Shown here: positions 3,069 to 28,079 of the stretch, one piece after another
Position numbering within the stretch: position 1 is the first letter of the stretch
How the letters are laid out: the number at the start of each line of letters is the position of its first letter
From: a virus
Taxonomy: Duplodnaviria > Caudoviricetes
DNA length: 30,042 bases
Reading direction: 5' to 3' (one strand)
IMG/VR virus record: IMGVR_UViG_3300030207_001809
Location: 1 to 30,042 of that record
Program-made: the position numbers and the translations under genes
Notes under the pieces: generated by a model
Seen by the model: the letters and a program-made list of their open reading frames with translations, nothing else
Database searches by the model: none
What the model was told of the DNA's origin: nothing

Positions 3069-6000
3069 ATGAAAGTAAGATTAGTAGCATATCGTAGAGA
3101 AACCACAACAGATGATTTATCTAACTTAACACAGTTTGAGTTAGATTTACAATCAGCTCCTCAAATATTCGCTAACTATAATTGGTTAGATATTAAAGAG
3201 CCTGATAAAAGAAAATCAAGTTTTAGTCAAACAATTAAAATACCTTTTACTGAAAGGAATAATAAATTTTTTGAGAGTTGGTTTGATGTGAATAGTGATA
3301 TATTAGTATTTGACGCATACAAAAAATTCCCAGCTATTATATTTGTAGATAGCGTACCACAACTACAAGGGTTTTTACAGTTAAAGTCTATATATGTAAA
3401 TGCGAGAATGTATGAGGTTGTAGTATTTGGTAATTCAGCTGATTTATTTAGTGATGTAAAAGGCAAGTATTTAGAAGATGTATTTACAACAGAATTAGAG
3501 GGTACTCCGGGAACTTTTGTAACAGATACAAGTTTAGACCACACGCTAACAAGAGAGAATGTTATAAACAGTTGGCAAAATGGACTAACTACTATAAATA
3601 GCGTACAAGATAAAGATGTAATGTACCCTGTAATAGATTATGGGCATACTACAAATCCTTTTAGTACAGGTATGTTTAGTAGCTTTTCAGGTTTACAAGA
3701 TATAATAGATGATAATGTTATAACAGGTTTTAATTGGTCTAATATTACTCAATTATTTGGTACGCTTACTCCAAGATTATTAAAACCAGCTATACGATTA
3801 CAAAGGCTTATATATATGTTATGCTCTAAGGCTGGTTATAGTATAAATAGTACATTTTTAGGAATTAATGGAGATGTTTTAGCTGATGATGTTGATTTTC
3901 ATAAAATATTCATGACTTGTGCTACTGAAAGTACTTATGTTAAAACTACGCCTATAGAGGCTTTTCAGGCGGTAGGAGCAGCAAGTCAAAATATAGATTC
4001 TTGTACAGGAGAAGATTGCTTAACCACAATACCTTTTACTTCAACTAATTATAATGGAGCGAGTTATTTTATCTTAAATCCCGGCACAGATGTACCCGGT
4101 AATGGATCGGCTTTTTTTATTCCTAATTATGGTAATAATGGAGAGGGTTTAGCTTTTGGTAATCAAGTAGTATTATATGATATATCTTTATCTATAGGCT
4201 GTCCAGCTAATGAGAATGATGGTACGCCTTTAAATAATTGGCAAGTACAACTCGCTATTTATACTGTTTATCAGAATGGTACATCGGCTTTTTTATCGCC
4301 TCAAACTTACGCCTTTAATACCAATAACACAGCTTCAACAGTAAACATCTCATATACTCCTAATGTGCAAACATCTCCCGGCTCATATAACTATTTATCT
4401 ATATGGTTTTCAGCTTCAAGTACTACTACTTTTACAGTTCAGAATCCTGAATGGACTTTAGTTAATAATGGCTCAGGGTTTTATTCTGATGGTTTTGAAA
4501 ATGGAACTGTAACAATGAGGGCAAATATGCCTAAAATAACTCAGGTAGATTTTTTAAAAGATATTGTAACAAGATATAATTTAGTAGTTTTAAATGACCC
4601 AAATAATCCCACACAACTTACTATAGAGCCTTATCAAGATTATATAGCTACAGGAAGTACCCAATATTGGACTGACAAACTTGATATATCTAAAGAGGCT
4701 GTAATAAAAACAACAGCCGAGCTACAAAATAGAACTCTCTTACTAACTGACCAAGAGGGTAATGATATGATAAACGAAAGATACCAAAATACTTATAATA
4801 GAGTATATGGTAGTATAGAGGTTAAAAATAGAAATGATTTTGCTCAAAACGATTTTAAAAATAGTAGCGTATTTTCTCCCTTTGTAGTTCATGGTATGCC
4901 AGACGCGAGTATTTTTGGCGTATTAGGTGGCGTTTCATCTTGGACAAAAATACCTATACACTACGCTGGGTATGTTAATGATAATGGAGAGTGGTCTGCG
5001 AGAAGTTCACAAAAACCCTCTTTATTTTATTATAGTGGAACTCCCTCTACCTTTGCTGGTTATGATGGTTTTAATGGCGTAGCTTGGGATTGGGCATTAA
5101 CACAGGCTGACTATGGTATAACTAATTTCTCTTGGGGTTATTCAGATGTATCGTCAATATTAGGCTATCAAGGATTCCCATTATGTTTACCTTATAATAT
5201 AGAAAGTGGAGATACTACAAACCCTTTAGATTCAGATAATCCTTTATTAACTACTAATAATATGTTATTTTGGACTTGGTATAGTGCTACATTTTACCCA
5301 TCTGGTTTTTTTGGTATTTGGGGAGGTAATGTATTTGGAGAAAATGTAACTCAAAATGGATATTATAATAGATTTTGGAGGCAATATATAAACGAGGTTT
5401 ATGATAATGAGGCTCGTATGATGGAATGTTATGTCAATTTATCTCCCGGAGATATATTTGAATTTGAGGCTAACGCTTTTAAAAATCCTGTATATATAAA
5501 GAATACTTTATGGAGGGTTTTGAAAATACAAAAACACTTAATAGGGGGTAACGAAAGTACAAAAGTAACACTATTAAAAGTATTAGAAAAAACTAATTAC
5601 GATTGTTATTTAAGTCCTACAAATTTTACTCCAGCTGGTAAAATACAATACACAGCCTCAGATGGCTCTTTAACATTTACAACTACTAATACTTGTTGTG
5701 AGGATTTAAATGAGAATTGGACTTTTGAAGAAACTAACGCAAGTACAGGAGAGGGTAACTGTTGGCATAATCAAGATTCTGTATCAATAGGAGGCGGAGA
5801 TGGTACTGATGTAGACCCAACTGTACCTCAACCTATGCCTATACTACCTCAATTACCTAATACACAAACTAACTTTATAGGTGTAGATGGATTAAATCAA
5901 AAATTCCAAAACATAGTATATAATTTAGAATCCTCTACAGATGATAACTCTACGCCAAATTACTTTACTGTTATGGGTAGTAGACCATTTGTATTACAAG

Positions 6001-13126: not shown

Positions 13127-13708
13127 ATGGGAGTATATAATTTAAATTATTCTTCGGGAATGGCTCAAGTACAAAATATATTTTTTTATGAGAATATAAG
13201 TAGCCTTGTTGAGCCAAGTACTTTAACAGGAAAGTATTTACTCTTTTATTTTAGAGGTAGGAAAACTAATTGGATAAGATCGGCTGTAGCTTATCCTACA
13301 GCTAATGGAGATTATAACGCTCCAGAATACACTAATAACGATAGATGTTGGACTTTAAGGCTAACATTAGTATATCCTACAAGTTCAAATATAGCCTCTT
13401 ATGATGGAGCAAGTACTCTATATAGATTGTTAGGAAATTTTGTGCCTCCTATAAATGAAACTTTTGATATAGATGTATATTATAATAATACTCATACTTT
13501 AAATATAAATTCCTCTACTAAAATAGAGGGATTAAGTATTGTACTTAATGTTACAGTAGATGAAACTTTTGGCTCTATAGATTCTGATTTACCTATAAGC
13601 TATTTTACAGAATATACGAATAACGATTTGAAAGCTGAACTACCAATTTCAGGGGGTAAGCCTTATTCAAATAATGAGGATAATCAATATGGAACTATAA
13701 CTTGGTAA
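13127..13708 (+). CDS. Hypothetical virion protein (possible head closure)
   Basis: 193 aa, beta-rich, immediately upstream of the portal. Confidence 0.45.
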   Translation: MGVYNLNYSSGMAQVQNIFFYENISSLVEPSTLTGKYLLFYFRGRKTNWIRSAVAYPTANGDYNAPEYTNNDRCWTLRLTLVYPTSSNIASYDGASTLYRLLGNFVPPINETFDIDVYYNNTHTLNINSSTKIEGLSIVLNVTVDETFGSIDSDLPISYFTEYTNNDLKAELPISGGKPYSNNEDNQYGTITW

Positions 13709-13710
13709 AA

Positions 13711-15957
13711 ATGAAAAAGAAAGAAAAAACACAAATATCAGTACTACATTTATCCGAATTTAATCTACCAGCTATAGCGGAGATTGCCAATAAAGATTAT
13801 ATATCTTTTGGAGATGATAATTTATACCCACAATACTTATTAGAGCTATATAATGGTAGTAGTATAAATAACGCTATAATAAAAGGCGTGGCGGCTATGA
13901 TTTATGGAGAGGGTATTGACGCTACAGATAGAGATAATAGTCCTGAACATAAGGAACAGTGGCTAAAACTTACCTCTTTACTTAAAGGCTCACAAAAAGA
14001 CTTATTAAAATGCTTAGCTTTTGATTTAAAGTTATTTGGAATGTGTTATGTTAATGTAATATGGAATAAGCCAAGAACTAAGATAGTAGAGATGTATCAT
14101 ATACCTGCTCAATATATAAGAAGTGGTAAGACTAATAGTTATGGAGATGTAGAAATGTATTATTATAGTGCTGATTGGACGAATGTAAGGAAATTTAAGC
14201 CAAGAGTATATAAATCCTTTAGCTCTAAAGATAGAACTGAGGCAAGTCAAGTATTATGTATCAAAGATTATTCTCCGGGTAGCTATTACTATTCACTTCC
14301 TGACTATCAAGGCTCTACCTCTTATATTCAATTAGATATGGAGATAGCACAATTTCATCTAAGTAATATCAAATCGGGTATGTTTCCCAGCCTTGCTATT
14401 AATATGTCGAATGGAATCCCATCTCATGAGGAAAGAAGAAAGATAGAAAGACAAATCAACGATAAATTTGCTGGTAGTGGTAACGCTGGTAGAATATTAT
14501 TAACCTTTAATGATGGTAAAGAAACAGCTCCCGAAATAGTGCCTATTACTTCAAACGATAATAGCGATAGTTACCAATTCTTATCTCAAGAAACTACGAG
14601 AAAGGTTTTAACCGGACACAGAATAGTATCGCCTCTCCTATTTGGAGTAAAAGGAGATGGATCGGGATTTGGTAATAATGCTGATGAGCTTAGAGATAGC
14701 TACTCATTATTTAATAACACTGTTATTAAACCTTTCCAAAATACTTTATTAAGTGGATTAGAGCCAGTATTACAAATAAACGATATACATTTAGATTTAT
14801 ACTTTAAATCATTAAAACCAGCTGACTTTATTGACATAGAAACAGTAGCTAAAGTAAGCGAAGAAGAACAAGAGAAAGAGGGTATAGATACTGATGAGCC
14901 TGTAAAGAAAGAATTTAAGGCGTTAAAAGATATTGACACTAAACCAACTAAAGGTATGATTGCTGAGGCTAAAAAAGGCTTAGAATGGCGTAGAGAGTAT
15001 GGTAGAGGAGGAACTGAGACAGGTGTCGCAAGAGCGAGGACTATCTCTAATGGTCAAAATCTCTCAATATCAACGATTAAGCGTATGAATAGTTTTTTTG
15101 CAAGACATGAAAAAAGTAGTAAAGGAGGAGAGGGTTTTGAGCCGGGAGAAGATGGATTCCCAAGTGCAGGTAGAATAGCTTGGGCGTTATGGGGAGGAGA
15201 CGCTGGGCAATCATGGGCGGCTAAAAAAGTAAAAGAAATAAAAAATGTTGAAGAATTAACAGAATTAACAGAAGATGATAGTAAAGTATTTTTATCAAAT
15301 TTAAAAGGAACAGAAATAGATAAAGATGAGTGGTTTGAATTAGGCGAAATTGATACAGAAGATACTGATTCTAATACTGAGAGTAAATTCGAGGCTTTTG
15401 CTAATCAACATTTAAATAAATATTATGAGTTTGCAAGTGCAAGTAGAATACCATCTAACCCAGATAGTCCTAATAGTGATAGTAACGCTGGTTTTATAAG
15501 AGTTTTATATAGATACTCACAAAACATATCCTCTAAGAGTAGAGATTTTTGTAAACAAATGGTAAGGCTAAGTAAAGGAGGTAAGTTATATACAATTAAT
15601 AATTTAAAACAAGCCTCTAATCTAACAGTAAATAAAGGGTTTGGTAAAAAAGGGGCGGCTACTTATGATATTTTTAAGTGGAAAGGTGGAGTATATTGTC
15701 ATCATTATTTTGTTAGAAAATTCTTTGTAAGAAAAAGAGTACCTAAAGGCTCAGAAGTAACAATAGGCGGTAAGACTTATAAGGCGGGAGCTTACCTACC
15801 TAATGGAAGTTTAGATATGTTTAAAAATAGTTTTTTGTCGGAGGTTAATAGTGGTAGATTCGCTTCAAGTTGGAAGAAAATAAAAGGTCAAGAGCCTAAA
15901 GGTCCAGCTCCTACCTTAGCTCCTATTAATACTCCAACAAGAGGTAAATACAGTTAA
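13711..15957 (+). CDS. Portal protein with two C-terminal accessory domains (WGGD domain and MuF-like Cys/His domain)
   Basis: FGDDNLYPQYL, YYSLPDY, FAGSGNAG and H.IVSPLLFG motifs in the first ~390 aa; ATG at 13711 preferred over TTG at 13702. Confidence 0.85.
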   Translation: MKKKEKTQISVLHLSEFNLPAIAEIANKDYISFGDDNLYPQYLLELYNGSSINNAIIKGVAAMIYGEGIDATDRDNSPEHKEQWLKLTSLLKGSQKDLLKCLAFDLKLFGMCYVNVIWNKPRTKIVEMYHIPAQYIRSGKTNSYGDVEMYYYSADWTNVRKFKPRVYKSFSSKDRTEASQVLCIKDYSPGSYYYSLPDYQGSTSYIQLDMEIAQFHLSNIKSGMFPSLAINMSNGIPSHEERRKIERQINDKFAGSGNAGRILLTFNDGKETAPEIVPITSNDNSDSYQFLSQETTRKVLTGHRIVSPLLFGVKGDGSGFGNNADELRDSYSLFNNTVIKPFQNTLLSGLEPVLQINDIHLDLYFKSLKPADFIDIETVAKVSEEEQEKEGIDTDEPVKKEFKALKDIDTKPTKGMIAEAKKGLEWRREYGRGGTETGVARARTISNGQNLSISTIKRMNSFFARHEKSSKGGEGFEPGEDGFPSAGRIAWALWGGDAGQSWAAKKVKEIKNVEELTELTEDDSKVFLSNLKGTEIDKDEWFELGEIDTEDTDSNTESKFEAFANQHLNKYYEFASASRIPSNPDSPNSDSNAGFIRVLYRYSQNISSKSRDFCKQMVRLSKGGKLYTINNLKQASNLTVNKGFGKKGAATYDIFKWKGGVYCHHYFVRKFFVRKRVPKGSEVTIGGKTYKAGAYLPNGSLDMFKNSFLSEVNSGRFASSWKKIKGQEPKGPAPTLAPINTPTRGKYS

Positions 15958-17134: not shown

Positions 17135-18169
17135 ATGAAAATAAATCAAACACATATATACTTTTTTTTAATAGTTTTTGTTTTAGGGATAGGAACTTGT
17201 AAGGCTCAAGACTTTTTTAAGTACGCTACTTTTTATTCATCATTTAGTACTCAAACCTCTTATATAGAGAATCAGGATTATATAGCTATAAATAAAGGAT
17301 ATGAAGAAACCACACAAATCAACCCATTTGATTACTCTTTACAAATTGGTATTAGGAGAATCGCTTTTTTTGATTACGAGCAAAAGAAAAAAACTTGGTA
17401 TACAGGAGATGAAAAAAGTGTCGCGGATAATACTACTATTTCTTTTTACAATGGCTGGGAGTATTTACTTAATTATTCTTTTATTCGTAATCGTTCTGAA
17501 ACATTTATTAATAGAAATTTTTGGATTCGCTATATGTCAGATAAAAGCGTTACTAAATTTCAAATAAAAAATGATGAGGGTAGAGATTTAGAGTATATAT
17601 CTTTTGATACAAGATATAGAATTAGTAAAGGAGGTTTTAATTTTACTATGGGTATTGTTGGGCGTCAACACGCTGTCTACGGCGTATCTCCTATAGAGGA
17701 ATTTTGGCAAAGTGGAGAGAGTTCTTTCCAAGAATTAGCTGAGGACTTTGGTTATTCTACCCAATTTGTACAGGGTAATCATCATTGGTATAATAATGGA
17801 GAATTAATAGCCACTTCAAATGATGAGTTTTTTAAACATTATTTTGGCTCAGCTATAGCTCAATATAACCAAGAACAATTAAACGCTTTAGGGAGCGTCT
17901 ATGAGCTTTCTATGGTTATTGGAACGAGTTACTATTACTATAATAAAGACTATTGGTTACACGCTTGGCTAAATGTATTACCATATCACTATGGAATTAG
18001 TGATTATTCTTATGATTATGAGGGTGTTCCTACAGATGTTGATTTTGGGTTAGTAGCTGGTTGGAGGATTACTAAAAATTTAGGTGTATTTGTAGAGGGT
18101 ACTTATTTAGAGTATTGGGAGAAGCCTATAAGTGAATTTAGAATAGGGTTTAATTATTTAATATTTTAG
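17135..18169 (+). CDS. Predicted outer-membrane beta-barrel protein
   Basis: Signal peptide (…GIGTCKA|Q), aromatic-rich amphipathic strands, C-terminal FRIGFNYLIF; start at 17135 preferred over 17111. Confidence 0.65.
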   Translation: MKINQTHIYFFLIVFVLGIGTCKAQDFFKYATFYSSFSTQTSYIENQDYIAINKGYEETTQINPFDYSLQIGIRRIAFFDYEQKKKTWYTGDEKSVADNTTISFYNGWEYLLNYSFIRNRSETFINRNFWIRYMSDKSVTKFQIKNDEGRDLEYISFDTRYRISKGGFNFTMGIVGRQHAVYGVSPIEEFWQSGESSFQELAEDFGYSTQFVQGNHHWYNNGELIATSNDEFFKHYFGSAIAQYNQEQLNALGSVYELSMVIGTSYYYYNKDYWLHAWLNVLPYHYGISDYSYDYEGVPTDVDFGLVAGWRITKNLGVFVEGTYLEYWEKPISEFRIGFNYLIF

Positions 18170-18171
18170 TT

Positions 18172-18648
18172 ATGAAGAAATTATTAGTATTGTTTTTAAT
18201 TTTTAATTATGGATTTAGTCAAACAAATTGCGAATTATGTGTCGAGCAAAATGGATTTTATTGTGGAAATGACGAAGCTAATTGGACTCAGTATTCTCCT
18301 CTTGGTTGTGTGCCTAATGGTCTTAATAACTTGTATTACCTTAATGATGGTTGGTTAGATTGTGTAGATGGCTCAGATGAGGCTGAGGCTGTGCCTACCA
18401 CTTTAGAAGATTGCTCAGTATTTGACTATGTACCTTGTGATACTGTTTATGTAGAAGTTGTAGATACTTTATATGTTACTGAATATATTGATTGTATTAC
18501 AGGATTACCTTGTGGAAATACAGGAATTTTAGAGCTACTCCAAAAAACGAAAAACGAAAATAAAATATATAATCTAAATGGAAAGGAAATATATAGACGA
18601 GAAAATATATATATAGAAGATGGTAAAATTAACTTTAAAATAAAATAA
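18172..18648 (+). CDS. Secreted Cys-rich protein with an LDL-receptor class A-like motif and a T9SS-like C-terminus
   Basis: Signal peptide …YGFS|Q; GFYC…GCVP…NDGWLDCVDGSDE; C-terminal IYNLNGK…IYIEDGK.NFK. Confidence 0.65.
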   Translation: MKKLLVLFLIFNYGFSQTNCELCVEQNGFYCGNDEANWTQYSPLGCVPNGLNNLYYLNDGWLDCVDGSDEAEAVPTTLEDCSVFDYVPCDTVYVEVVDTLYVTEYIDCITGLPCGNTGILELLQKTKNENKIYNLNGKEIYRRENIYIEDGKINFKIK

Positions 18649-18651
18649 AAA

Positions 18652-18837
18652 ATGAAAGAATTAATCTTAAAATTTGTAAAAAGTAGAAAGTTTTGGTATG
18701 GATTTGTAACTCTAATACTAATACTTTTTTCTGAAAGTTTTGGAATTAGCGATACTAAAATGAATACTTTAGTAATCGTTACTGTTGCTTTAATTATAGG
18801 GCAAGGAATAGCTGATAGAAACTGTATTAAATGTTAA
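18652..18837 (+). CDS. Putative holin (2 TM)
   Basis: KSRKFW motif, two hydrophobic segments, IIGQGIAD. Confidence 0.6.
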   Translation: MKELILKFVKSRKFWYGFVTLILILFSESFGISDTKMNTLVIVTVALIIGQGIADRNCIKC

Positions 18838-18840
18838 ACT

Positions 18841-19131
18841 ATGGCTAAAGAAATCTCAGAAGATAGCAAATTTTTACTCTCAATAAAATCTATAATAGGA
18901 ATCGTCCTTTTAGTGTCAAGTTTTGTTGGTATGTATTGGAGTTTAAGTATGGAAATACAAGCGGCTAAGGAGTTACCTGTAGTAGAAATTCCCGATCCTG
19001 AAATTACAAGACAGGAATTAGATTTGAAGTTGGAATTAATCTCGACTACGGTTATGTCAAACGCTGATAAATTAGATAAAATAGAAACGCAGGTAGAAAA
19101 GATAGAGGAGAGAGTTTACGAGCTTAAATGA
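18841..19131 (+). CDS. Membrane-anchored coiled-coil protein
   Basis: One N-proximal TM helix followed by heptad repeats (LDKIETQVEKIEERVYEL). Confidence 0.65.
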   Translation: MAKEISEDSKFLLSIKSIIGIVLLVSSFVGMYWSLSMEIQAAKELPVVEIPDPEITRQELDLKLELISTTVMSNADKLDKIETQVEKIEERVYELK

Positions 19132-19505
19132 GATTTTTTATATATATATTATTGTGGGTAATTCCTTATCAATGTCTGAGCCAATCGTTTATTAACAAAT
19201 CTCAACTCAATGAGGCTCAAAAATCCACTGAGCCTATAGTAGTAGAGTTTTGGGCGGATTGGAACGACAGTAACAAATGTCAATTCTTAGGCAATCTTAA
19301 AGATTGTAGGAAGTACAGAATATGTATAGAGGATTTTCCTGATTTGGCAGAATCTTACAAGATTAGAGTATTACCTACAATAATTATTTTTAATAAAACT
19401 GAGGAGATAAAAAGGTATAAAGGAAATCTCCTTTTTGAATTAGATATTCAAAAACAAGATATACAAGCTATTATAGATAGTATAGTAATCTCAAAATATA
19501 GATAA
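19128..19505 (+). CDS. Secreted thioredoxin-fold protein lacking CxxC
   Basis: Signal peptide …QCLS|Q; VVEFWADWNDSN in place of WCxxC; LA..YKIRVLPTIIIF cis-Pro motif. Confidence 0.75.
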   Translation: MRFFIYILLWVIPYQCLSQSFINKSQLNEAQKSTEPIVVEFWADWNDSNKCQFLGNLKDCRKYRICIEDFPDLAESYKIRVLPTIIIFNKTEEIKRYKGNLLFELDIQKQDIQAIIDSIVISKYR

Positions 19506-19972
19506 TGATTTTATCAAAAAATTTTACACTAAACGAATTTACTAAAAGCGTTACAGCTATAAGAAACAATATAGATAATAGTCCAAGTTCTGAACATATA
19601 AGAAATATACAACTATTAGTAAAATATGTCTTACAGCCACTTAGAGACGCTTTAGGAAAGCCAATTAGAATTACATCAGGCTATCGGTCAGAAAATTTAA
19701 ACAAAATCATAAAGGGAAGTAAAAAAAGTTCCCACATGAAAGGACAGGCGGCGGACTTACAATTCAAAGTAGATGGGGTAATGAAGAATAAAGATATTTG
19801 GGATAAGGTTATAGAATTAGGATTACCTTTTGACCAAATGATAAATGAATTTGATTACTCTTGGATTCATATAAGCTATAATCATGAATATAATAGAAAG
19901 TCATTATTAGAGGCTTATAAAGAAAGTGGAAAAACTAAATATAAATATCATACAATAGAAAAAGGATTATGA
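19505..19972 (+). CDS. Endolysin, peptidase M15A family
   Basis: LSKNFTL.EF, SGYRS, SSH..GQAAD and WIHISY zinc-peptidase motifs. Confidence 0.9.
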   Translation: MILSKNFTLNEFTKSVTAIRNNIDNSPSSEHIRNIQLLVKYVLQPLRDALGKPIRITSGYRSENLNKIIKGSKKSSHMKGQAADLQFKVDGVMKNKDIWDKVIELGLPFDQMINEFDYSWIHISYNHEYNRKSLLEAYKESGKTKYKYHTIEKGL

Positions 19973-20361
19973 AAATACTAAAAACAATATTTGGAGGAGG
20001 AGCTGATAAATTAGTAGAATCTGTAGGAGGTGTATTAGACAATCTAAGTACATCTAAAGAAGAAAAATTAGAGGCTAAAAGAAAGATTAAAGAGCTAATG
20101 GTAAATCATCAAATAGAAGTAGAGAAGAATGTAAGCGAAAGATGGAAAGCAGATATGAATAGTGATAGTTGGTTGTCTAAAAATGTAAGACCTCTTGTAT
20201 TAGTGTTTACTATTGCCTGTACTATGCTACTTGTATTTATAGATAGTGGTAGTATTACCTTTCAGGTAGAGGAAAAATGGACAGATTTACTACAATTAGT
20301 TTTAATAACTATTATTGGAGCTTATTTTGGTGGTAGGTCAGTTGAGAAACTTAAAAAATAA
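19969..20361 (+). CDS. Holin (3TM/GTA-holin-like)
   Basis: RWKADM.SDSWLSKNVRP and GAYFGGRS.EK motifs, hydrophobic helices. Confidence 0.8.
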   Translation: MKILKTIFGGGADKLVESVGGVLDNLSTSKEEKLEAKRKIKELMVNHQIEVEKNVSERWKADMNSDSWLSKNVRPLVLVFTIACTMLLVFIDSGSITFQVEEKWTDLLQLVLITIIGAYFGGRSVEKLKK

Positions 20362-25909: not shown

Positions 25910-26270
25910 ATCAAAAGGTATTGGAGATGATATAGCCAAACTAACTAAGGCTACAGGTCTTGATAAATTAGCTAAAAAAGTATTAGGAGATGATTGTGGC
26001 TGTGATGAGCGTAGAAAACAGCTTAATCAATTATTCCCAAGATTTAAAAACATAAGGCAATTTACAGAAGATGAGATTAAGATATATGAAGAAGTATTCC
26101 CATTAAAAAGTAATGGAGTTTTAACACCGGGAGAGAGGACAGTAATATCAGCTTTATATCATAGCGTATTTGGTAGTCCTCCTGAGTGGAGTAGTTGTAG
26201 TCCTTGTAATAAAAAAGTGTTAAGTAACTTAAAAAAAGTATATGATAAATCTTGTAAAATAGATGATTAG
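25899..26270 (+). CDS. Conserved-looking Cys-motif phage protein
   Basis: GIGD.IAK.TKATG, DCGCDERR and CSPC motifs. Confidence 0.7.
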   Translation: MSDKSKGIGDDIAKLTKATGLDKLAKKVLGDDCGCDERRKQLNQLFPRFKNIRQFTEDEIKIYEEVFPLKSNGVLTPGERTVISALYHSVFGSPPEWSSCSPCNKKVLSNLKKVYDKSCKIDD

Positions 26271-27336
26271 TATAGGTACAGATTTTAGTGGTATAGGAAG
26301 TCCTGAACAGGCTTTAATAAAATTAGGCGTAGAGCATGAAAGTAAATTCGCTTGTGATTATGATAAGTTTGCTAAACAAAGCTACTTAGCTAATTATAAA
26401 CCGGATATATTTTATGATGATATAACTAAAAGGAATCATAAACAAACGCCTTATGTAGATTTATATGTAGCAGGATTCCCATGTCAAGCGTTTAGTATGG
26501 CTGGTAAAAGAGAGGGTTTTGATGATACGAGAGGTACTTTATTTTTTGATTTACTACAATACTTAAATGAGCAGAAACCCAAGTACTTTATTTTAGAAAA
26601 TGTTGTAGGTTTGCTATCTCACGATCGGGGTAGGACTTTCCAAACTATTTTAGATTGTTTAGCTAAAACAGTAAATAAACAATATTTTTTAACTCCACCT
26701 GAGAACTTGGGTTATCATATTTATTATAAAGTTTTAAATACTAAAGATTATGGAATACCTCAAAATAGAGAAAGGATATTTATAGTAGGTTTTAGAGAAG
26801 ATAAACACTCTTTTAAGTTTCCTAAAAAAATGCCATTAAAAATATCTCTTGCTGGTGTATTAGAAAAAGAGGTAGATGATAAATACTTCCTAAGTGATAC
26901 TATGGTAAAGGGAATAGCTAAAAGTAATTTTAAAGAGCGAAAGCCTTTAGATACAACGGGTATATGCTCTACTTTAAAAATAGGAGGAGATGTACCATGT
27001 TTTGATGTTAAGGGTGGCTCAATGCAGCCATATCCAAGAGATTATAAACAAAAGAAAGTAAAAAGACAGCTAAGGTTTGAAGCCAGAAATGATATATTAG
27101 CTAATTGTGTTTTAACTGATTCTAATAGTAGTTTAGTAAAAAAAAATAAAAGAATAAGAAAATTAACGCCTTTAGAATGTTTAAGGCTACAAGGCTTTCC
27201 TGATTCTTTTTATGATAAATGCAAAGAAGATGGATTAAGCGATACACAATTATACAAACAAGCTGGGAACTCTATGACAGTAGATGTTATGGCTTATTTA
27301 ATAAAAGAGATATTAGTAAATGAAAAATCACACTAA
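26263..27336 (+). CDS. DNA (cytosine-5) methyltransferase
   Basis: FSGIG, GFPCQ, ENV, Q.RERIF and YKQAGNS motifs. Confidence 0.95.
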   Translation: MISIGTDFSGIGSPEQALIKLGVEHESKFACDYDKFAKQSYLANYKPDIFYDDITKRNHKQTPYVDLYVAGFPCQAFSMAGKREGFDDTRGTLFFDLLQYLNEQKPKYFILENVVGLLSHDRGRTFQTILDCLAKTVNKQYFLTPPENLGYHIYYKVLNTKDYGIPQNRERIFIVGFREDKHSFKFPKKMPLKISLAGVLEKEVDDKYFLSDTMVKGIAKSNFKERKPLDTTGICSTLKIGGDVPCFDVKGGSMQPYPRDYKQKKVKRQLRFEARNDILANCVLTDSNSSLVKKNKRIRKLTPLECLRLQGFPDSFYDKCKEDGLSDTQLYKQAGNSMTVDVMAYLIKEILVNEKSH

Positions 27337-27610
27337 AGTATATATGACTTTTTTTTACTTAGATGAAAGCGATTTTATAGGCTGTGAGATGTGCGGTAGT
27401 GAAGCTACTGACATACATCACATTTTAAGGCGTGGTATTGGGGGTAGTAAATGTAAAGACTACATAGAAAATTTATCCGCCCTTTGTAGAGATTGTCATA
27501 ATATGGCTGAAACAAATAAAGAATTTAATGTATATGTAAGAATAAGGCATTTAGAATTAATTAATAAATATTTATATGAAAATCACATTAGTAAAAATAA
27601 ACACTCTTAA
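27320..27610 (+). CDS. HNH endonuclease
   Basis: CEMC, DIHH and NL..LCRDCH motifs. Confidence 0.85.
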   Translation: MKNHTKVYMTFFYLDESDFIGCEMCGSEATDIHHILRRGIGGSKCKDYIENLSALCRDCHNMAETNKEFNVYVRIRHLELINKYLYENHISKNKHS

Positions 27611-28079
27611 TATTGCTGAATATAACCCAAGACAAATTAGCAATAAACAATATGAAGATTTAAAAAAGTCTATAGACAAATTTGGAATGTGTAAACCTAT
27701 AGTAGTTAATACAAACCCTGAAAGATTATATACTGTTATTGGAGGACACCAACGCTTAAAAGTGCTACAAGATTTAGGAGCAGAGAAAGTACCTATAGTA
27801 ACAGTTAATCTATCTTTAGAAGATGAAAGAGAGTTAAATGTAAGGCTAAATAAAAATACAGGAGATTGGGATTTAGATATGTTAGCTAATGAGTTTGATA
27901 TAGATGATTTAAAAGATTGGGGTTTTAAAGATGTAGAGTTAGGATTTAACATAGACAAAATAGAGGAAGAAAAAGAAAAAAGTATAGTATTAACAATAAA
28001 AGAAGAAGATATAAGCAAAGCAAGTAACCTACATAAAGAATTAACAGAAAGAGGTTTTAATGCTACAATAAAATGGTAA
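27576..28079 (+). CDS. ParB/Srx-like domain protein
   Basis: YNPR, SIDKFG..PIVVN and GGHQR motifs. Confidence 0.85.
   Translation: MKITLVKINTLNIAEYNPRQISNKQYEDLKKSIDKFGMCKPIVVNTNPERLYTVIGGHQRLKVLQDLGAEKVPIVTVNLSLEDERELNVRLNKNTGDWDLDMLANEFDIDDLKDWGFKDVELGFNIDKIEEEKEKSIVLTIKEEDISKASNLHKELTERGFNATIKW

Follow-up and report, generated by a model that had tools for sequence, protein, structure and literature searches.

The window, that is the whole stretch of 30,042 nucleotides analysed here, is an AT-rich 30-kb tailed-phage genome whose genes lie on the plus strand and include those for a tape measure protein, a head protease, a portal, a terminase, an M15 endolysin, a 3TM holin and a metallophosphoesterase. 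Its completeness is 100% according to CheckV, and its last reading frame ends in the same 13 residues that begin the open reading frame at position 61. The window and variants of it are present in marine metagenomes (four DNA runs). Since the best cultured match to a neighbouring structural gene belongs to the Nonlabens phage P12024 (27% identity), we infer a flavobacterial host; the source is likely an uncultured marine phage infecting such bacteria. Just upstream of the endolysin, five genes (here A to E) are packed between positions 17,135 and 19,505 of the plus strand; neighbours overlap or are 2-3 nt apart, and the endolysin gene starts within the end of E, at 19,505. The tight arrangement described in the initial annotation is thus evident from the coordinates of the reading frames. 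The median dN/dS, calculated against 10 close relatives, lies between 0.08 and 0.17 for each of A to E; the five genes are real and under purifying selection. The three junctions between a signal peptide and a glutamine that had been noticed in A, B and E are present in the sequence and are supported by conservation across homologues, signal peptides having been assessed by eye and by this conservation. Glutamine at position +1 is reported as the Bacteroidetes rule for signal peptides (PMC5837995). In a hydropathy scan of the whole genome, the only membrane-like genes besides C and D were those for the tape measure and the 3TM holin, together with the signal peptide of A.

Gene A (17,135 to 18,169, plus strand) encodes a protein of 344 amino acids, predicted to be an exported 12-stranded outer-membrane beta-barrel, in agreement with the barrel proposed at first sight. 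The AF2 model folds into a 12-stranded barrel (pLDDT 78.8, pTM 0.70), the strands show alternating hydropathy and the sequence ends in YLIF, with a C-terminal phenylalanine. The predicted protein therefore combines the three marks of an outer-membrane beta-barrel, namely a closed amphipathic barrel, a signal peptide and a C-terminal aromatic residue. A small residue followed by glutamine occurs within residues 13-40 in 99 of 100 homologues. Judged from strand order, a long and conserved turn of 31 residues (76-106) would face the periplasm and a large and conserved insertion of 75 residues (180-254) the cell exterior. Six charged strand residues are invariant (R74, E109, R118, R132, R160 and E321). 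No Pfam, PHROG or NCBIfam model matches A, which has 231 near homologues and, at 50% clustering, 331 representatives; its best Atlas neighbours are viral clusters. Among structures, VIA placed Tsx first (Z 14.6, rmsd 3.8, 182 aligned residues), followed by EstA (12.7), KdgM (12.3) and NanC (12.0), and Foldseek returned FapF/NanC. The barrel size and topology are those of known 12-stranded barrels (Tsx, KdgM/NanC, autotransporter, FapF, LpxR, OMPLA; Z 9-14.6), but identities are only 6-13% at an rmsd of about 4-5 Å and none stands out enough for a function; the matches of the modelled structure give none. An enzymatic role similar to OMPLA or LpxR was considered and rejected, as those matches reach only Z 9-10.6, below Tsx.

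Gene B (18,172 to 18,648, plus strand) encodes an exported, acidic and cysteine-rich protein of 158 amino acids, composed of an LDLa-like head, a length-variable DT/EY stalk and a short T9SS-like tail. Variation of the stalk leads to family lengths from 148 to 271 amino acids. The hydrophobic N-terminus reads as a Sec signal peptide, with Gln17 present in 22/22 homologues. The label 'LDLa/T9SS-like' given to this gene at the outset is weaker than it sounds. Against the LDL-receptor class A model PF00057, B scores 12.8 bits and a homologue 16.8, below the cut-off of 24.1 (E 0.14 and 0.008, respectively), and only the acidic DCxDxSDE end is matched. The tail matches neither of the T9SS models TIGR04183 and PF18962, and measures about 45 amino acids compared with the 72-75 positions of C-terminal domain (CTD) models. 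Two motifs of the T9SS CTD, a glycine-containing beta3-beta4 loop and a lysine-containing last strand, were found to be necessary (PMC11285876). In a comparison by eye with these published motifs, the tail of B has YNLNGK, in which G137 is invariant in both sets inspected (22/22 and 69/69), and a lysine-rich last strand. Because the tail keeps two necessary motifs yet misses the T9SS models, type IX export of B can, on sequence grounds, be called plausible. The structural model of B, a helix with short strands at pLDDT 41 (51-59 in the tail), is too poor to be used.

The place of B is an optional, swappable slot, occupied in related loci by B, by an unrelated family of 175-200 amino acids or by cysteine-repeat proteins of 600-1,600 amino acids. 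Three unrelated cargo bodies share the same type of tail, and among related bodies some carry a full T9SS domain at the end and others the short tail. Eight of the 21 large cargos tested exceed the Por_Secre_tail cut-off, as does L240, and the same short tail is found on chromosomal proteins of a Flavobacteriales genome. B is probably a passenger that would be exported by the type IX secretion system of the host. A comparable case is the T9SS type A cargo of the 'Cryophage' (PMC7468147), in which variable phage genes are likewise tagged for the host type IX system; the Pfam tag of that cargo is the one carried by the 8 of 21 large cargos and by L240. The 'Cryophage' cargos are described as glycosidases, whereas those found here are cysteine-rich acidic proteins and the tail of B in the window is short and below the cut-off. 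No barrel, thioredoxin or coil is mentioned in the available part of the 'Cryophage' report.

Gene C (18,652 to 18,837, plus strand) encodes a membrane protein of 61 amino acids with two hydrophobic segments and is a holin candidate (phrog_9987, E 1e-5). In relatives it is replaced by two unrelated small two-helix families or is absent, and it is probably an ordinary second holin. The peptidase M15 endolysin (19,505 to 19,972, plus strand; PF08291, E 1.5e-18; phrog_894) and the 3TM-family holin (19,969 to 20,361, plus strand; phrog_3427, E 6e-29; PF11351 just under the cut-off) follow downstream of E.

Gene D (18,841 to 19,131, plus strand) encodes a single-pass membrane protein of 96 amino acids. 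Its hydrophobic segment starts at residue 13, and the C-terminal part of 61 amino acids is acidic, cysteine-free and heptad-like, resembling a coiled coil; hydropathy and this remainder agree with the membrane anchor plus coiled coil announced in the initial annotation. The distribution of charges suggests that the N-terminus lies inside and the C-terminus outside. Homologues measure 89-114 amino acids, and in 100/100 no cysteine follows the membrane segment. D matches phrog_20984 weakly, and its Atlas neighbours are viral clusters.

Gene E (19,128 to 19,505, plus strand), which overlaps the end of D, encodes an exported thioredoxin fold of 125 amino acids. It matches the thioredoxin family PF00085 (E 2e-7, score 31.3 against a cut-off of 23.5) and stays below the cut-off of TIGR01068 (38 versus 97 bits). 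The fold signature, the tryptophan before the active site and the cis-proline are shared with the family; E differs in being exported and in having both catalytic cysteines replaced by invariant asparagines. The resulting NxxN (N46 and N49) and the cis-proline P83 are found in 100/100 homologues, none of which has a redox-active CxxC site, and the thioredoxin without CxxC expected from the first reading is thus real. Since these residues are invariant, E probably serves for binding and not as an oxidoreductase. Glutamine is kept in the matching signal-junction column in 99/100 homologues. One to four cysteines are present in 94/100 homologues of E; mature A of the window has no cysteine.

Which of these genes belong together was examined in related loci. 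From 303 matches to E, clustering at 90% identity gave 164 clusters, 88 of which have 5 kb on both sides. D lies within 6 kb of E in all 88 dereplicated loci and is adjacent to it in 85; A lies within 6 kb in 87, the exception being an inverted A about 8 kb away. The observed gene orders are A-B-C-D-E, A-D-E-cargo, D-E-cargo-A and lysin-D-E-A-holin, and in five loci A (with or without B) and D-E are inverted and about 7-8 kb apart. The trio is found in 30-kb, 60-115-kb and contractile-tailed phages; one contig with tail sheath and tube genes carries it between cargo and endolysin. Sequence distances correlate weakly between A and D (Spearman 0.20) and more closely between A and E (0.49) and between D and E (0.52). 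A tailed cargo gene is located within 6 kb of E in 82/88 loci and next to one of the core genes in 63. In G012, a complete genome of 39.7 kb, the order is lysin-D-E-A-holin and a cargo gene is absent throughout; B is not needed for the trio. The conserved unit therefore consists of three genes, A, D and E, and not of five: the co-occurrence supposed for the whole cassette holds for these three across the 88 loci and fails for B, which is swappable and sometimes absent, and for C, which is replaced or missing.

The lysin-like neighbour of the trio changes family among relatives, from M15 to phrog_3000/33083, DUF5675 or, in a contractile-tailed phage, a wall-binding/amidase protein. A recognised lysin-like gene lies within 6 kb of E in 69/88 loci and is adjacent in 38, as judged with three models, one of which, DUF5675, is without proven lytic function. 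Adjacency is found in 33/40 B-type loci and in 5/48 of the others, in which a lysin is within 6 kb in 29/48 and cargo is adjacent in 24/48. Holin-like genes lie within 6 kb of E in 60/88 loci.

The trio occurs in an estimated thousand or so IMG/VR stretches. Each IMG/VR scan covered the best 80 loci per query, out of an estimated total of at most about a thousand for A and E and of about 6,800 for the holin, so that the samples are biased towards the queries and the loci are phylogenetically non-independent. The barrel is present in 15 of 41 whole records, which comprise P12024L, four fragments anchored on E and the 36 longest of the 80 records anchored on the holin. It is found in 7/8 genomes that are at least 90% complete and were retrieved by the 3TM holin alone. 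In 6/15 records it is more than 30 kb away from this holin; taking the genome as closed leaves 15-34 kb in five of them. The Nonlabens phage P12024L, a cultured relative with the same gene order and holin family, has no barrel, nor does the complete genome G009. In tblastn searches of 50,697 GenBank phages, A had no match, D nothing meaningful and E only ordinary thioredoxins, and no cultured phage with the trio was found there. Pattern scans of GTDB contigs gave no A and one weak E. A matches 3/401 Flavobacteriales genomes (one phage contig, one lone chromosomal copy accompanied by a broken second, one weak match) and E matches 3/401; outside phage contigs, the matches to A or E in this set are the lone chromosomal A, a D-E pair in a chromosome, where it lies at the edge of a contig, and a weak one. 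None of 60 relatives of the chromosomal A carrier has A, and searches around the two chromosomal carriers (of A and of D-E) revealed no further chromosomal case. An origin as a host operon was rejected on the basis of the 3/401 and 0/60 counts. The trio resides almost only in phages, with sporadic chromosomal copies.

The initial annotation saw no convincing lipobox o-spanin, and a regex pattern search of all 387 possible starts of 30 amino acids or more in the six frames of the complete genome agrees: 0/387 starts have a lipobox, and neither a lipoprotein partner nor a unimolecular-spanin reading frame was recognised by this pattern, which detects evident lipoproteins in related loci. None of the window genes tested matched a spanin family in PHROG, Pfam or NCBIfam. 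For comparison, 27 of 80 holin loci had enough flanking sequence, 9 with a barrel and 18 without one nearby (in 4 of these 18 a barrel is present at another place of the record). Within 4 kb of the holin, no credible lipobox gene was found in the latter (0/18), and the one match was an internal start in a holin. The barrel-free cassettes of P12024L and G009 also contain no lipobox gene; in both, the lysin is directly preceded by a gene for a membrane coil. Homology of D to this gene in G009 was not supported (probability 10%). Since barrel-free relatives equally have no lipobox gene, the absence of spanins is a general trait of the group and not one that sets the trio apart, and the suggested anti-correlation with Rz/Rz1 did not emerge, as relatives without the trio also have no recognisable spanin. 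Bacteroidota phages are able to encode spanins, as the candidate spanins reported for Porphyromonas phages indicate (PMC10367356), and only unimolecular spanins were found in Bacteroidetes phages in another study (PMC12596118). According to PMC6139136, spanins occur in 586/677 phages and none in 91/677. A spanin-independent peptide route also exists (10.1101/515445).

The reading favoured here, with a probability of roughly 40%, is that A, D and E act together like a spanin, as a bridge between the two membranes by which the outer one is opened during lysis. D would be anchored in the inner membrane and extend its coil into the periplasm, where E, as a non-catalytic adaptor, would bind both D and the periplasmic side of A. 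The outer-membrane anchor, a role played elsewhere by the o-spanin lipoprotein, would be supplied by A. After holin and endolysin have removed the wall, the trio would open the outer membrane. Such a set of a coil in the inner membrane, an adaptor in the periplasm and an anchor in the outer membrane follows the logic of spanins. Two-component spanins such as lambda Rz/Rz1 and T4 PseT.3/PseT.2 similarly comprise an inner-membrane protein and a periplasmic coil encoded among lysis genes (PMC6139136). Their periplasmic length ranges from 62 to 300 residues, which includes the about 170 of D plus E, and their genes may be away from the holin in larger phages, those of T4 being apart from both holin and endolysin (PMC6139136). 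The trio differs in having a barrel and a thioredoxin fold in place of the outer-membrane lipoprotein, in the absence of any sequence match to spanin families and in the lack of a periplasmic cysteine in D. At least one periplasmic cysteine is present in the complex in 507/528 two-component systems (PMC6139136); in the trio, E has one to four cysteines in 94/100 homologues. In favour of the bridge, the trio lies among late and lysis genes in genomes without a lipobox spanin, persists without cargo in G012 and stays within 6 kb of a lysin in 69/88 loci while the lysin family is swapped; the presence of the barrel in 7/8 near-complete genomes is close to the share of phages with spanins (586/677; PMC6139136).

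Several observations weigh against this bridge. P12024L, a lytic relative, and G009 have neither a barrel nor a lipobox gene in the cassette, and the trio was not seen to replace spanins (0/18 barrel-free holin loci with a credible lipobox gene). Outside B-type lineages the linkage to lysins is loose (5/48 adjacent, against 24/48 for cargo), and the barrel is far from the 3TM holin in 6/15 records. D is cysteine-free after its membrane segment and its distances are weakly correlated with those of A (0.20). A simple anchor role would moreover leave the conserved extracellular insertion of A, its invariant charged strand residues and the frequent cargo unexplained. The barrel features suggest a role at the surface. 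In the main rival reading, which we consider somewhat less probable than the bridge, the barrel, with cargo where present, would alter the surface of the infected cell to block or sense other phages, with E and D relaying this to the inner membrane, in superinfection exclusion or in the timing of lysis and not in lysis itself. Outer-membrane disruption and surface remodelling or exclusion had both been offered in the initial annotation. The rival is in line with the dispensability of the trio in some relatives, the size and conservation of the insertion, the swappable and length-variable cargo and the loose lysin linkage outside one lineage. Precedents are lambda Lom, which blocks LamB as cited in bioRxiv 10.64898/2026.10.24.761521, and the lysis inhibition known from T4 and N4. 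Exclusion proteins, however, do not require a partner in the inner membrane; the barrel is conserved and not hypervariable (dN/dS 0.17), and its occurrence in 7/8 near-complete genomes that differ widely in size points to a more fundamental requirement.

The closeness of cargo (within 6 kb in 82/88 loci, adjacent in 63), the tail type common to three unrelated bodies, the 8/21 large cargos passing the Por_Secre_tail cut-off and the resemblance of A to 12-stranded transport barrels such as FapF would also suit a private secretion or display aid, in which A, D and E act as chaperone, shuttle or surface anchor for T9SS-tailed cargo alongside the host type IX system. This is improbable: the trio is intact without cargo in G012, 6/88 loci have no cargo nearby and the tails are of host type, so the host machine should suffice. 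The T9SS barrels are PorV and PorP/SprF; none is among the 50 VIA matches listed for A, and a T9SS chain appears only at rank 42 in Foldseek (TM 0.31). Still less probable is that the products belong to the virion, or that they are exported independently of each other and share no more than a place in a late operon. A to E follow the head-tail genes, in five loci A (with or without B) is separated by about 7-8 kb from an inverted D-E or vice versa, and distance correlations reach only 0.20-0.52, but the conserved signal peptides with +1 glutamine point to export, the trio is kept across unrelated virion types and D and A accompany E in each of the 88 loci examined. The least credible is a role of A as an anion-selective channel through which nutrients would be taken up during infection, helped by E and D. 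In its favour are the small-solute channels Tsx, KdgM and NanC as best structural matches and the invariant Arg and Lys on the strands of A; against it, the genes are late, an inner-membrane coil would not be needed and the 70 commonest neighbour clusters include neither binding proteins nor metabolic genes.

Searches of the open-access literature brought up no account of the trio, in agreement with the earlier impression that no system of this composition is described. Phage outer-membrane barrels and phage T9SS cargo as such are already known (bioRxiv 10.64898/2026.10.24.761521; PMC7468147). Like A, lambda Lom and 1,603 outer-membrane proteins of huge phages are phage-encoded exported beta-barrels that may alter the host surface (bioRxiv 10.64898/2026.10.24.761521); Lom has 8 strands and stands alone, whereas A has 12 strands and fixed partners. 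The words 'thioredoxin', 'spanin' and 'T9SS' do not occur in the main text of that preprint.

By what means phages without spanins breach the outer membrane of Gram-negative hosts is a standing question, for which the spanin-like bridge of A, D and E, encoded in only about 1.7 kb of coding sequence, provides a specific and testable candidate. More tentatively, the trio may belong to a third class of machines with which phages lyse the outer membrane, namely a spanin of three components with a barrel as anchor and a redox-dead thioredoxin as linker. Most phages that infect abundant marine flavobacteria, from siphophage-like ones of 30 kb to large contractile-tailed ones, would use it, and it would often display host-secreted cargo on the doomed cell. 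Even if its role were instead exclusion or the timing of lysis, the trio would be a new phage system that spans the envelope and acts on major marine polymer degraders.

Several kinds of small lipoprotein, apparently unrelated to one another, are encoded at or near the gene for the predicted outer-membrane barrel (A) in 6 of the 88 dereplicated module loci (L045, positions 4278-4478; L164, 7571-7762; L321, 14363-14554; L356, 7724-8272; L383, 8108-8662; L395, 7817-8561) and also in L314 (1955-2365). Some of these products resemble o-spanins, the outer-membrane lipoprotein half of two-component spanins, in their Pro/Lys-rich composition.

A family of small proteins, 56-62 amino acids long and mostly with four cysteines, is present in 28/88 module loci (for example L288, 2809-2979, and L260, 6984-7154). 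Its members share a conserved WINSW motif at the N-terminus and an FGFEI-like C-terminal end, and their gene frequently adjoins the lysin gene or the trio formed by A, the membrane-anchored coil D and the exported thioredoxin-fold protein E. The complete barrel-free phage genome G009 encodes such a protein as well. No match was found in Pfam, NCBIfam or PHROG, and a profile search detected no member in the window.

In larger phages, series of short genes with strongly basic, Lys/Arg-rich products surround the module (L218, 11226-12492; L221, 8392-8640; also many 55-70-kb relatives); these products are possibly DNA-packing or internal head proteins. The portal protein of the window (13702-15957) has a long C-terminal extension and an internal phrog_2859 domain at residues 409-520; its full-length relatives measure about 600 to 870 amino acids. 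Just upstream of the terminase genes lie a C5 DNA methyltransferase, an HNH nuclease and a ParB-like gene (26263-28079), and the methyltransferase had no match among the 162 related loci compared.

Sporadic chromosomal copies of module genes occur in small marine Flavobacteriales genomes. G100 carries a lone intact barrel gene among housekeeping genes (contig C35, 9379-10593) and a broken copy (C25, 16678-16941), and G340 carries D-E at a contig edge, followed by an aminopeptidase-like gene (C183, 1-475). Two other contigs, G234:C32 and G197:C58, are phage contigs binned into bacterial genomes; the former has genes for tail sheath and tube proteins, together with probable ribonucleotide reductase and queuosine-pathway genes.

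In L205, L206, L225 and L237, the M15 endolysin gene is directly preceded by a second, D-like membrane-coil gene (phrog_20984, E-value 3e-12; at 10949-11275 in L205). The D-like proteins thus make up a broader family of lysis-cassette proteins.
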